The notes under the pieces were generated by a model. The model had not been told where the DNA came from. It was given only the letters and a program-made list of their open reading frames with translations, and did not search any database. Shown here one piece after another: positions 10,813 to 26,910 of a DNA stretch of 64,000 nucleotides; position 1 is the first letter of the stretch; the number at the start of each line of letters is the position of its first letter. This stretch comes from Escherichia coli (GTDB lineage Bacteria; Pseudomonadota; Gammaproteobacteria; Enterobacterales; Enterobacteriaceae). The position numbers and the translations under genes were made by a program. The stretch lies in NCBI RefSeq assembly GCF_045037415.1, contig NZ_CP173438.1; one strand, written 5' to 3'.

Positions 10813-10983
10813 ATGTTTGTCAAACCTGTTAAAGGGCGGTCAGTGCCTGACCCTGCCCGCGGCGACCTTTTGCCCGCCGAAGGGCGAAATGTTGACGAGA
10901 ACAACTACTGGCTGCGCCGTGAAGCAGCGGGTGATATCCGGCGCGTGAATAAAAAGGTGAACACCGATGACGATAAGCTTTAA
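10813..10983 (+). CDS. Small hypothetical protein, 56 aa (below the ORF-track cutoff)
   Basis: ATG at 10813 to TAA at 10981; fills the gap before the sheath gene. Confidence 0.3.
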   Translation: MFVKPVKGRSVPDPARGDLLPAEGRNVDENNYWLRREAAGDIRRVNKKVNTDDDKL

Positions 10984-12464
10984 CACCATTCCGTCGAATA
11001 CGCTGGTTCCGCTGTTTTATGCGGAAATGGATAACCAGGCGGCGAATACTGCACAGGACAGCGGAGCATCGCTGCTGATTGGTCATGCCAATAACGGTGC
11101 AGAGATTGTTGCCAACAGTCTGGTGCTGATGCCGTCGGCAGACTATGCACGCCAGATTTGTGGTGCGGGAAGTCAGCTGGCGCGTATGGTCGAGGCTTAT
11201 CGCCAGACTGACCCGTTTGGCGAGCTGTATGTGATTGCCGTTCCGGAAGCCACAGGCGCGGCGGCAACGGTTACGCTGACGGTGACCGGGGAGGCAACCG
11301 AAACCGGCACGGTGAATGTTTATGTGGGACGTACCCGCGTGCAGGCACCGGTGACCAACGGCGATAACGTCGCGACGATTGCCAGCAGTATCAAAGATGC
11401 CATCAATGCCGTTCCGACCCTGCCGTTTACTGCCTCATCTTCGGCAGGCGTGGTCACACTGACCGCGCGTCATAAGGGGCTTTGCGGGAATGAAATTCCT
11501 GTCAGCCTCAATTACTACGGCTTTGGTGGGGGCGAAGTGCTGCCAGCGGGCGTACAGATTGCCGTGGCGACGGGGAACGCCGGAACGGGCGCTCCTGTTC
11601 TCACCGGCGCGGTGGCTGCAATGGCGGATGAGCCGTTTGATTATATCGGCCTGCCGTTCAACGACACGGCCTCCGTTAACACGCTGGTGACCGAGATGAA
11701 CGATACCAGCGGTCGCTGGAGCTATGCGCGTCAGCTGTATGGTCATGTGTATACGGCAAAGATCGGCACGCTGTCAGAACTGGTGACCGCAGGTGACCAG
11801 TTTAACCAGCAGCACATTACCCTGGCGGGGTACGAAAAAGAGAACCCAGACGCCTGCCGACGAGCTGGCGGCAAGCCGTACCGCCCGCGCAGCGGTGTTT
11901 ATTCGCAACGATCCGGCACGTCCCACGCAGACCGGTGAGCTGGTGGGTATGCTGCCTGCGCCGAAGGGGAAACGGTTCACGATGACCGAACAACAGACCC
12001 TGCTGTCTCATGGCGTGGCAACGGCGTATGTCGAAAGCGGGGTGCTGCGCATTCAGCGTGATGTCACCACGTACAGGAAAAACGCTTACGGTGTTGCGGA
12101 TAACAGCTACCTCGACAGCGAGACGCTGCATACCAGCGCGTATGTGCTGCGCAAACTGAAATCCGTCATTACCAGTAAGTACGGGCGTCACAAGCTTGCC
12201 AGCGACGGTACCCGCTTTGGTCCCGGTCAGGCGATTGTCACCCCGGCGGTGATCAAAGGGGAACTGCTGGCAACCTACCGTCAGCTTGAGCGTGCGGGGA
12301 TCGTGGAAAACTACGAACTGTTTAAGCAGTACCTGGTTGTGGAGCGTGATGCCAGCGATCCGAACCGCCTGAACACGCTGTTCCCGCCTGACTATGTTAA
12401 CCAGTTGCGTGTCTTTGCCGTGGTTAACCAGTTCCGTCTTCAGTATTCAGAGGAGTCTGCATAA
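10967..12464 (+). CDS. Contractile tail sheath protein (Mu L-like), interrupted by an apparent frameshift at the A-run 11835..11839
   Basis: Two overlapping ORFs (10967..11938 in frame 2, 11793..12464 in frame 0) together give ~500 aa; C-terminal part has a sheath-like LFPPDYVNQLRVFA motif. Confidence 0.7.
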
Positions 12465-12820
12465 TGGCCCGTATCGGGGGAACCTGTTATTTCAAAATTG
12501 ACGGTCAGCAGCTATCGCTGACCGGCGGCATTGAGGTGCCCATGAACAGGACGGTAAATGATGACATCATCGGCCTGGACGGTTCAGTGGACCGCAAGGA
12601 AACTCACCGTGCACCTTATGTCAAAGGGACCTTCAAGGTGCCGAAGAATTTTCCGGTGAGCAAAATCACCTCGTCTGATGAGATGACCATCACTGCCGAG
12701 CTGGCGAACGGTCAGGTCTATGTATTGTTGTCTGCCTGGCTGCACGGTGAAGCGAACCATAATGCCGAAGAAGGCACGGTTGATCTTGAGTTCCACGGTG
12801 AAGAAGGGGATTACCAGTGA
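12464..12820 (+). CDS. Tail tube protein (Mu M-like)
   Basis: 118 aa immediately after the sheath gene. Confidence 0.8.
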   Translation: MARIGGTCYFKIDGQQLSLTGGIEVPMNRTVNDDIIGLDGSVDRKETHRAPYVKGTFKVPKNFPVSKITSSDEMTITAELANGQVYVLLSAWLHGEANHNAEEGTVDLEFHGEEGDYQ

Positions 12821-13140
12821 TTGAGCTTGTACTTAAAAAACCGATCATCGCCCACAAAGAAACACTGCATGTGCTGGAAATACGTGAGCCTACGTATGAC
12901 GAGATTGAGGCGCTGGGGTTCCCTTTCTCTGTTTCGCCTGATGGTGGTATGAAAATGGACAGTCAGGTGGCGCTGAAATATATCCCGCTTCTGGCCGGGA
13001 TCCCGCGCTCGTCTGCAGCGCAGATGACGAAGCTGGATATTTTCAAGGCAGGCATGATTGTAATGCGTTTTTTTACCGGCTTGGAGACGGAAGAGACCTC
13101 CGGAAGCGATTCTACAATGTCGCGTGGTTCTGGAAATTAA
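12817..13140 (+). CDS. Tail assembly chaperone (G-like)
   Basis: 107 aa immediately upstream of the tape-measure gene. Confidence 0.7.
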   Translation: MIELVLKKPIIAHKETLHVLEIREPTYDEIEALGFPFSVSPDGGMKMDSQVALKYIPLLAGIPRSSAAQMTKLDIFKAGMIVMRFFTGLETEETSGSDSTMSRGSGN

Positions 13141-13232
13141 ACCCCCTTGAACTTCGCAGGACGGCTATTTCCCACTTTGCTGATCTGGAGGCAGAGGCCG
13201 TCCGTATAAATGAGGAGATGAAGCATGGCTGA
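12817..13232 (+). CDS. Tail assembly chaperone, predicted -1 frameshift extension product (GT-like)
   Basis: Slippery heptamer T_TTT_TTT at 13068..13074 in the zero frame; the -1 frame stays open to TGA 13230..13232, abutting the tape-measure ATG at 13225. Confidence 0.5.
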
Positions 13233-20781: not shown

Positions 20782-23157
20782 ATGCATCGTATAGACACGA
20801 AAACCGCGCAGAAGGATAAGTTCGGCGCGGGTAAGAACGGTTTTACCCGTGGTAACCCCCAGACCGGCACGCCTGCCACCGATCTGGATGATGACTACTT
20901 TGACATGTTGCAGGAAGAACTTTGCAGCGTGGTGGAGGCCTCCGGTGCCAGTCTGGAGAAGGCGCGGCACGACCAGCTGCTTACCGCGCTTCGTGCGCTG
21001 CTGTTAAGCCGCAAAAATCCGTTTGGCGATATCAAATCGGATGGCACGGTAGAACGCGCTCTTGAAAATCTGGGGTTACAGGATGTAAAAGCTGGTTCAT
21101 TGAACAATCTGTACACTAACCATTCCCGTAGTGTCTTAATGGAATTGCCGTTATTATTCCCAGACTACGATACGGTGCTGGCTGCTCAGTCTGGTGCGGA
21201 ATATATGTATCCACAGGGATTTGTGGTGACAGGAGAAAAAATCTATCTGAGTTATACCGTTGAGCCAAAGCAGACACGGAACGTTATAGTTCAGTACACA
21301 ACATCCGGCGAATATGAGGGATATTATTATGTCGATAATGGAGGTCGTGGCGTTGTCAGCGAAGGCCTTGTGGTGACAACGGATTACGGTGGATTACGTT
21401 TGTTCATGTCAGGAGAAAATGGATTACTGAAACAGTTTTCGCTTGATGGGGCAATTTCTGGTTCAGTATTGCCGTTAATTGATGAACATGATGTCGGTGT
21501 TTACAACCAGTTCAGCTATCGTAAAAACCGCTGGGTGGTTGAACAGTCAGCGCCGGAAGTGGGAGGCCTGATCACCCGCACAGTATTTGCGGTGTATGAT
21601 TTTCAGTTTCGTCGGACAGGGACATTCACATTACCGTTGCATGATTCCGGATATATCACGGAAAGCACAGACAGCTATGCAAGACGCTTCACAAAACGTC
21701 AGGGAATTGCTGTGGGAGACGATTATATTGCCTGTTCTTATGGTGGCTATTTTAATACCGGGGCATCAGCCGGATTTAACCAGTTTCAGGGGGTTAAGGT
21801 CTTTTCTCCGGATGGAGTAAAGCAGCAGGAATCCATTCTTCATCCCCAAAAAATGATAGATGTGCTTACCAGGCAGGGTTTTACACCTTCGCGCATTGAG
21901 AACGAAGGAATTTGTATTTCTGACGACGGCGGCAGTATATATTCGCTTTATATCTTTCTGGAGCGTGGGTTACCACAGGCTTATCAGAAAGGAATTGTTC
22001 TGATGAAAGAGTTCAGTACTGGCAGAGATGCTATTGATTTTCGTCAGGCAGCCTGGTTGTACACGGGGTTTGATGTGTCTCATGCCAGTATTGGAACATT
22101 TCCCCGTAGTGCCCAGGGGTTGGTAAACCCGGTGTTGGGGACGGTATTCACATCCCTGTCTGAAATTCTGGCATATATGCGTTCTGTGAGTCAGAAATGG
22201 TTTTGTCTGCATACAACCACGACACCGATTAAAGATCTGAGTGGAAATGACATTCCTGCTGACAATTATGTGTTCATCAAGAATGCTAATAACCAGACAT
22301 TCTATATAACGCAGGAGTCAGCTGAAGGTGGAATAAAATATAAAGCTGTCACTACAGACAGCGGAGAATATGGTTTTCAGCGACAAAGAGAGGCAATCTG
22401 GTCCAATGTTATCACCATCGCACAAAAGAGCGATGGTGAGGATCAGTTTAATCGTATTATCGCTGCCTCGAAAAGTGGTTCAGGTAAAAATCAGGATAAA
22501 ATACTGGTAGTTGACCAACAGGCATCAGAGGGGAATAACACGCTGGTAATTGGCGGTGGTTCATCTGTGTTCAGGTCAGCGACAGTGATTGATTTTGCAA
22601 CGAATCAGGATGCAAATGCCACAGGAGGAGAAAAGAGATGGCGCATAGATTCATCAGGAAATCTCCGCCCTTATACAGATAATACGTATTCGATCGGTTA
22701 TGCCTCATGGCGACCCGCACAGGTTTATTCAGCTACGGGAAGTATCAGTACATCAGACCGGACTCATAAACAGGACGAAACAATTCTGTCGGATGCAGAA
22801 AAAAGGGTTGCCAGAAAGCTGCTCGGGTATATCTGTCGGTTCCGTTTCAGAGATGCAGTGTCCAGCAAAGGGAACGCAGCCAGATGGCATGTAGGAGTGA
22901 TTGCTCAGGACGTACAGAAGGTCTTCTCTGAGGAAGGGCTGGACGCTTTTGATTACGGTATTTTGTGTCGTGATGAATATCCGGCGGAATATGAAGTGGT
23001 TTACGGGACTCGTATGGAGCTTGGTCCTGACGGACTCCTTACAATGGAAGAATACGATACCGGAGAGCGCAAGCTGGTCAGGGAGGCTGGTGAAATAATG
23101 TCTGTAAGGAATGATGAGCTGCATTATTTCATGCTGGCATCGCTGTCTGGCCAGTGA
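20782..23157 (+). CDS. Tail fibre protein with C-terminal intramolecular chaperone (peptidase S74-like) domain
   Basis: 791 aa; AT-rich mosaic central part; C-terminal ~130 aa resembles the self-cleaving chaperone domain of fibres and tailspikes. Confidence 0.8.
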
Positions 23158-23194: not shown

Positions 23195-23889
23195 TCATGC
23201 ATTTTATGCTGCGATTATGCGTTCTCCTGTTGTTTGTTGCTGAGAGTGAAACACCGGAAACATACTGGTGGATTGAAATGTTCTGTGTGGCAGCGTATGA
23301 ATATGTCGTGGTAGGGTGGATAAAAAATGCCCGTGATGATCCGGGCAACATAGCAGTATGCATTTTTCTATTGTGAACTGATGCATTATACAAGTAATGC
23401 TGTTATTGAGGAAAGTTTAAAGAAGCGGCTCTTCTCCGCCTGTAAAGTTTGGTCATTATTGCTTTATATATAAGTTCCACCAGTAGGCGATCATCTATGA
23501 TGTTGGCATATCGACTTTGTATAAGAGGTTTCCGGTCGGAGATAAATGAAACCGTAGCACGTCGTATGCAAGAACGTGCCACGGCTGGCTGGCGAACTTT
23601 CGATAGTGCGAGTATTGAATGATTTCCAGCTGTTACTGATTTTATATAACTGCAGTGGAATTATTCAACACACAGGCAAAACGGAATAAGCTGAGAAAAA
23701 AAAGCGTGCTTTCCCAATCTGGGGTAAATCACATCTGAATGACACCTGAAAACAGGTGGTGGCCTCAAGAAGGCTTGGAATATTCTTCTTTAATGTTATG
23801 TAATTTATTGATTTTTCGTGTACGATTTTAAGACATTTATTCCAAGAAAAATTTTTAACTCTTTGATTTTTCGACTCTGTATCATCGGT

Positions 23890-23948
23890 TCTCGAAAACC
23901 GGAGTAGGGGCAACTCTACCGGGGGTTCAAATCCCCCTCTCTCCGCCA
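23890..23948 (+). repeat. 3' fragment of tRNA-Ser(CGA) (serU-like, anticodon loop to CCA); putative prophage att core repeat
   Basis: 59 nt TCTCGAAAACCGGAGTAGGGGCAACTCTACCGGGGGTTCAAATCCCCCTCTCTCCGCCA match the 3' part of remembered E. coli tRNA-Ser(CGA); the 5' half is absent. Confidence 0.75.

Positions 23949-25477: not shown

Positions 25478-26910
<1,433 letters not shown>

Follow-up and report, generated by a model that had tools for sequence, protein, structure and literature searches.

Phage SfI has a contractile tail, as seen by electron microscopy (PMC3636060). The sheath genes of SfI, SfII, SfIV and SfV (gp13 in SfI, orf11 in SfV) and Mu gpL-type sheaths share their gene order and domain set with a prophage region in the DNA analysed here, a stretch of 64,000 nucleotides from Escherichia coli (assembly GCF_045037415.1, contig NZ_CP173438.1; hereafter the window). 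Unlike the SfI and SfV sheaths, the window gene has one extra base that splits it into two open reading frames (ORFs). The window prophage also differs from the SfI/SfV-type phages in its integration at a tRNA-Ser gene (serU type), adjoining zinT.

Eco31I is a type IIS restriction–modification system, reportedly described by Bitinaite et al. in 1992 (cited via PMC12679398). In the ST131 strain EC958, the methylases M1.EcoMI and M2.EcoMI are 100% identical to the Eco31I methylases and are encoded on the GI-leuX island (PMC4659465). M1.EcoMI is an m6A methylase that modifies GAG-m6A-CC, with 100% of GAGACC sites methylated, and M2.EcoMI is predicted to place m5C at GGT-m5C-TC; the system is variably present within ST131, and EC958 has its prophages and islands enriched for the GGTCTC/GAGACC motif (Forde et al. 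2015, PMC4659465). Nanopore methylation calls for E. coli ATCC 25922 give the same motif pair (PMC12679398). Methylation motifs peculiar to a strain are a documented source of systematic error in nanopore assembly, mostly as C>T and G>A (Lohde et al. 2024, PMC11610573; Liu et al. 2024, PMC11610603). Judging from assembled sequences alone, we consider the sheath frameshift of the window to be, most likely, an error of the nanopore consensus that methylation induced at an Eco31I site, and neither prophage decay nor a programmed frameshift.

In the given sequence the split into two ORFs does exist, and it is more than a chance pattern. Two overlapping ORFs on the plus strand, in frames 2 and 0 by position modulo 3, cover the sheath gene (Table 1), as an earlier note on this DNA had described. 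Pfam profiles place PF17481 and the first half of PF04984 on the N-terminal ORF and the second half of PF04984 together with PF17482 on the C-terminal ORF (E-values of 1e-12 to 1e-22), and the break cuts PF04984 in mid-domain, at profile position ~88–96 of 168. As written, the sequence spreads the three sheath domains over two ORFs and not over one polypeptide of ~500 aa. The same note held that neither ORF is a full sheath and that the two together span about 500 aa, and this stands: each ORF matches part of the sheath families, and deletion of the one extra base in silico restores a 498-aa product identical to WP_001566767.1, with PF17481, PF04984 and PF17482 in order on the single chain.

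The sheath span is 98.5% identical at the nucleotide level to the gene of SfI gp13, annotated as ‘tail sheath’, and shares 97–98.5% with the sheath genes across SfI, SfII, SfIV and SfV. With many prophage copies in E. coli (WP_001566767.1 genes) the identity reaches 99.9%. All of these homologues measure 1497 nt and encode 498 aa. The best structure match is the 495-aa tail sheath protein 9khy (E 1.5e-80, residues 3–490). The tail module runs in the order terminator, DUF2635, sheath, tube (PF10618), chaperone (PF10109) and tape measure, with the sheath directly upstream of the tube gene, as expected of a member of the sheath family. Once the extra base is discounted, the predicted product is a member of the Mu gpL/SfV orf11 sheath family, and the window probably has an ordinary Mu/SfV-type sheath gene that is intact.

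Table 1 Features of the sheath region and Eco31I sites in the window (positions are those of the window)
Feature	Position	Strand	Remark
Tail sheath gene, SfI/SfV-like (Mu gpL-type) prophage	10967..12464	+	1498 nt, against 1497 nt / 498 aa in intact homologues
N-terminal ORF, 323 aa	10967..11938	+	Residues 1–292 native, then 31 out-of-frame residues, TGA
C-terminal ORF, 223 aa from GTG	11793..12464	+	17 out-of-frame residues, then native 293–498
A5 run named by the earlier note	11835..11839		Same as in intact homologues; not the indel site
GAGAACC: Eco31I site GAGACC (reverse complement GGTCTC) plus one A at 11843/11844	11840..11846		Frameshift-causing base
GAGACC, sole unaltered Eco31I site in the window	13093..13098		The Logan contig from this clone has GAAACC
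GGTTCTC: second Eco31I site, extra T at 23889/23890	23887..23893		In displaced 3′ tRNA-Ser (serU) fragment, prophage end

We placed the extra base by alignment to three homologues and by a first-difference scan from both ends, which locate it at 11843/11844, where GAGACC becomes GAGAACC. The earlier note had put the frameshift at GAAAAAG. The A5 run is present there, but it is A5 in the window and in all aligned intact homologues alike; the extra base lies 4 nt 3′ of it, so that the alignment to homologues lands outside the run. The description of a frameshift at a short A-run therefore misplaces the indel, and the interpretation changes with it. The extra A occupies the fourth position in GAGACC, corresponding to the T3/C4 step on the GGTCTC strand, and thus coincides with the two adjacent base pairs modified in GAG-m6A-CC and GGT-m5C-TC (modified positions from PMC4659465).

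The same event is found at a second site in the window. A comparison of the whole window with Ecol_AZ146, a genome with an intact sheath, gives just six differences in 64 kb, two of which are single-base insertions that represent the same change, GGTCTC to GGTTCTC, the one in the sheath being on the other strand. In the corresponding 64 kb of Ecol_AZ146, the motif GGTCTC/GAGACC occurs just three times, and the window is altered at two of these three sites (11840 and 23887). For at least two of six differences to fall by chance within these 18 bp out of 64 kb, the probability is about 1.2e-6. The 61-mer around 23887 is matched at 100% over its full length by strain A1.S1.126 only, among the complete E. 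coli records. The third site, at 13093, coincides with the private ‘SNP’ of the Logan contig. Relative to the sheath-intact prophage, the 25 kb of late genes carry one missense SNP, the second motif insertion and the sheath base and are otherwise identical; the neighbouring late genes are intact.

The +A allele of the sheath is rare. Its 61-mer is present at 100% in only one of 985 complete E. coli records, NZ_CP146588.1 of strain A1.S1.126 (urine, Olsztyn), and in this RefSeq record the sheath gene is labelled ‘frameshifted’ by PGAP. None of 12 phage records carries the allele; the +A string has no match in IMG/VR, where the intact string has at least 120, and none in JGI metagenomes or GTDB representatives. 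Conservation of the two-ORF state in homologues, which the earlier note had named as an outcome that would refute its reading, is contradicted by these counts, and a conserved recoding site is thereby ruled out. A single Logan contig, SRR28375022_87 (run SRR28375022), has the 323-aa split product among its calls; this contig carries the +A and is two SNPs apart from the window. Between the window and A1.S1.126 there are four differences in homopolymer length, a few SNPs and an IS1 within fliM. Since this IS1A insertion in fliM (window ~47830) is present in A1.S1.126 and absent from the window, the window derives from another isolate of this clone or from another assembly of it.

We compared A1.S1.126 with A1.S1.18, a strain from the same project with the same prophage. 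The Eco31I methylase locus is found in 634 of 5,426 complete E. coli genomes. In A1.S1.126, both Eco31I-family methylases (m6A and m5C) are intact and have the same protein accessions as in EC958, and the locus has the same GI-leuX context in the two strains, adjoining McrBC. RM.EcoMI of EC958 and the A1.S1.126 system have the GGTCTC/GAGACC recognition and the methylases in common and differ in the endonuclease gene, which ISEc52 splits in A1.S1.126 (NZ_CP146588.1 1681187–1684179, outside the window); with the methylases intact, this leaves orphan methylation. Six of the ten motif sites assessed in A1.S1.126 are altered, comprising four of five around the prophage and two of five in the fim/GI-leuX region, and always at T3/C4. 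The other differences of this assembly from the references are GATC substitutions or homopolymer contractions, with the exception of one extra A adjoining an ISEc53 insertion in fimB. Its GATC and homopolymer differences are a nanopore error profile, the platform being read from these error signatures alone.

A1.S1.18 shows the same GATC and homopolymer errors, some of them identical to those of A1.S1.126 (e.g. G6 to G5 in the GP46 gene). Among its eight assessable motif sites there is no alteration, and no trace of the Eco31I genes was found in its GI-leuX. The contrast between six of ten altered sites with the methylases and zero of eight without them gives a one-sided Fisher p of 0.011 in a small sample of sites. 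Taken together, (i) the extra A lies inside GAGACC, (ii) the alteration recurs at other GGTCTC/GAGACC sites in the window, in A1.S1.126 and, at the third window site, in the Logan contig, and (iii) the cognate methylase is encoded where the errors occur (A1.S1.126), while the errors are absent where it is missing (A1.S1.18); a sequencing error is therefore favoured.

The proposed mechanism would start from an ST131-type E. coli host whose GI-leuX encodes two Eco31I methyltransferases. These would place m6A within GAGACC and m5C within its complement GGTCTC, and the nanopore signal would be distorted at the doubly modified T3:A / C4:G step. The consensus could then read C4 wrongly as T, with A for G on the opposite strand, or add an extra T or A. 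At the sheath site, the change of GAGACC to GAGAACC would split an otherwise intact 498-aa gene, which PGAP would then label ‘frameshifted’. For the window, this implies that its assembly, like run SRR28375022, is presumably nanopore-derived, and we infer that its strain carries the Eco31I methylases, whose locus lies outside the window.

The errors described by Lohde et al. (PMC11610573) and Liu et al. (PMC11610603) are likewise confined to motifs, located on modified bases and recurrent across sites and assemblies; C>T and G>A changes at the same sites and their absence in a methylase-less strain are also common to that system and to the present case. Two differences stand out: the sheath-breaking event is a +1 insertion, whereas the errors in PMC11610573 and PMC11610603 are substitutions or ambiguous purine/pyrimidine calls, and the Eco31I motif, with m5C and m6A on adjacent base pairs, is absent from the motifs treated there.

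Several observations count against an artefact. The window is cleaner than A1.S1.126, with GATC sites and long homopolymers correct, and may have been polished with short reads or produced with a better basecaller; because short-read polishing should remove a single-copy error, possible polishing of the window speaks against a sequencing error. Only six of the ten motif sites in A1.S1.126 are altered, and the errors in PMC11610573 and PMC11610603 do not include +1 insertions. Furthermore, the +A is present in three non-identical records (the window, the RefSeq record and the Logan contig), as inheritance would give.

These records, which differ elsewhere by SNPs and an IS1 insertion, are what a genuine, recent and lineage-restricted +1 would produce: the A in GAGACC would have been duplicated, the sheath inactivated and contractile tails lost in the course of ordinary prophage decay. 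We regard this explanation as unlikely. In its favour, the +A is a change from one to two bases and not in a long homopolymer, and the long homopolymers that are wrong in A1.S1.126 are right in the window and in the Logan contig. Other public assemblies of the prophage family carry independent sheath lesions, namely a 7-bp duplication and +A, −2 and −1 indels, and two further assemblies are disrupted without an indel (N-terminal products of 298 and 277 aa, probably through nonsense mutations); at least two of the sheath-disrupted assemblies have many other broken genes, and real and artefactual cases are mixed. The prophage integrase is also labelled ‘frameshifted’ by PGAP, in sheath-intact and sheath-split genomes alike, yet a 338-aa frame keeps the catalytic region.

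An inherited real mutation was in fact favoured at first on account of the three non-identical records. We dropped this reading on finding that the only other indel shared by the clone is the same base change in the same hexamer, a coincidence of ~1e-6 under inheritance. A genuine mutation in the sheath also leaves unexplained the further C4>T changes at GGTCTC sites, which are absent from the methylase-negative sister. No other sign of decay, such as could mark a genuine pseudogene, accompanies the lesion: the late region is otherwise identical to that of sheath-intact prophages. The genuine inactivating mutation of a cryptic or domesticated prophage, offered by the earlier note as one of two options, is accordingly unsupported. 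Frameshifted prophage pseudogenes of the PGAP type, as which the sister RefSeq record labels the gene, are a related annotated category, but the lesion in this case tracks a methylation motif and the pattern of sequencing errors instead of independent decay.

Two candidate signs that were considered along the way were set aside. The integrase says little either way as a mark of earlier decay, its DNA being identical in a sheath-intact genome and its frame 0 giving the 338-aa product. The sheath lesions of other assemblies cluster at nt 840–877, as a mutational hotspot of the sheath would have them, but the look-up by the 171-aa C-terminal product recovers only breaks just upstream of ATG 11949, and we attribute the clustering to ascertainment.

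We also considered that the GGTCTC changes might be real in a different sense, the doubly methylated T3/C4 acting as a mutational hotspot in a lineage that kept the methylases and lost the endonuclease, as the split gene in A1.S1.126 would allow. If this were true, C>T changes by m5C deamination together with +1 insertions would erode the recognition sites and knock out genes like the sheath. We judge such a hotspot to be very improbable.

A length miscall in the A5 run GAAAAAG, the form of error that the earlier note had in mind, is scarcely credible. In its favour, the shift follows only 4 nt after the run, and several homopolymer errors are found at other places in A1.S1.126. However, left and right scans both give 11843/11844 and leave the run at its homologue length, and the homopolymer errors that these assemblies do show shorten runs of five or more bases and do not expand single ones. 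The note's suggestion of a sequencing error is thus favoured as to the error and not as to the homopolymer: the A5 is untouched, and the extra A sits on an Eco31I-methylated position.

Least probable of all is a functional two-part sheath, made by programmed +1 frameshifting or transcriptional slippage or assembled from two polypeptides: the ORFs overlap and the first stop (11936–11938) lies 10 nt before the in-frame ATG 11949, which makes reinitiation conceivable, but the two-ORF state occurs in one of the 985 E. coli records and in no phage or IMG/VR record, a +1 shift is required with no known +1 slippery motif at the junction, the break falls in mid-PF04984 and not at a domain boundary, and no convincing ribosome-binding site precedes any of the in-frame C-terminal starts (11793, 11895, 11943, 11949 and 11982). 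The junction reads GAG AAC CCA, and the A5 run is read GAA AAA G, as it is in the single-ORF homologues. Both the A5 miscall and the programmed or functional split are effectively excluded.

The prophage gives no evidence of domestication or recoding. Read as a methylation-induced consensus error, the sheath case is not new biology and belongs with the methylation-induced nanopore errors. Its twist is an insertion at a site with m5C and m6A on adjacent base pairs, and a false pseudogene that is already in the RefSeq annotation. In strains with Eco31I methylases, nanopore-only assemblies can gain false +1 frameshifts and C>T or G>A changes at GGTCTC/GAGACC. Such errors pass into RefSeq, where they take the form of pseudogenes labelled ‘frameshifted’ and of private SNPs or indels that look like clonal markers. 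For calls of prophage integrity, pseudogenes or outbreak SNPs from such assemblies, GGTCTC/GAGACC sites should be masked or re-checked.

Further features of the window were recorded. GGTCTC/GAGACC is strongly depleted, with one site in the window and three in the reference where dinucleotide shuffles lead one to expect 19 ± 4.4; this scarcity over 64 kb may reflect avoidance of Eco31I restriction, or codon usage. The displaced 3′ part of a tRNA-Ser (23880–23948; anticodon loop CTCGAAA, serU type) marks the prophage end adjoining zinT; ARAGORN calls no tRNA at 23880–23948, and in the sister genome a 31-nt exact repeat of the fragment is found in the intact tRNA-Ser beside the integrase, outside the window. 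The IS1397 (IS3-family) transposase at 25520–26878 is a continuous 452-aa ORF because the slippery A-run (26001–26008) is A8; the run is A7 in both related genomes, where it is annotated with a programmed −1 frameshift, and the A8 is either a homopolymer overcall or an allele with a constitutively fused OrfAB transposase.

Within the tail genes, the tape measure gene starts 84 nt past the tail assembly chaperone gene (PF10109; window 12817–13225), a type of gene that usually has an extension made by a programmed −1 frameshift. The tail tube differs from WP_000090998.1 by S89L, which results from a private C>T at 12729. The same 118-aa tube variant is encoded in an unrelated sheath-intact prophage (GCA_041359895.1), and L89 is either a natural polymorphism or a separate miscall. 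The tail fibre at 20782–23157 is a single continuous ORF of 791 aa, with a Peptidase_S74 C-terminus on the Logan call; the RefSeq annotation of this DNA gives a partial ‘StfP’ pseudogene and a 672-aa tail fibre protein.
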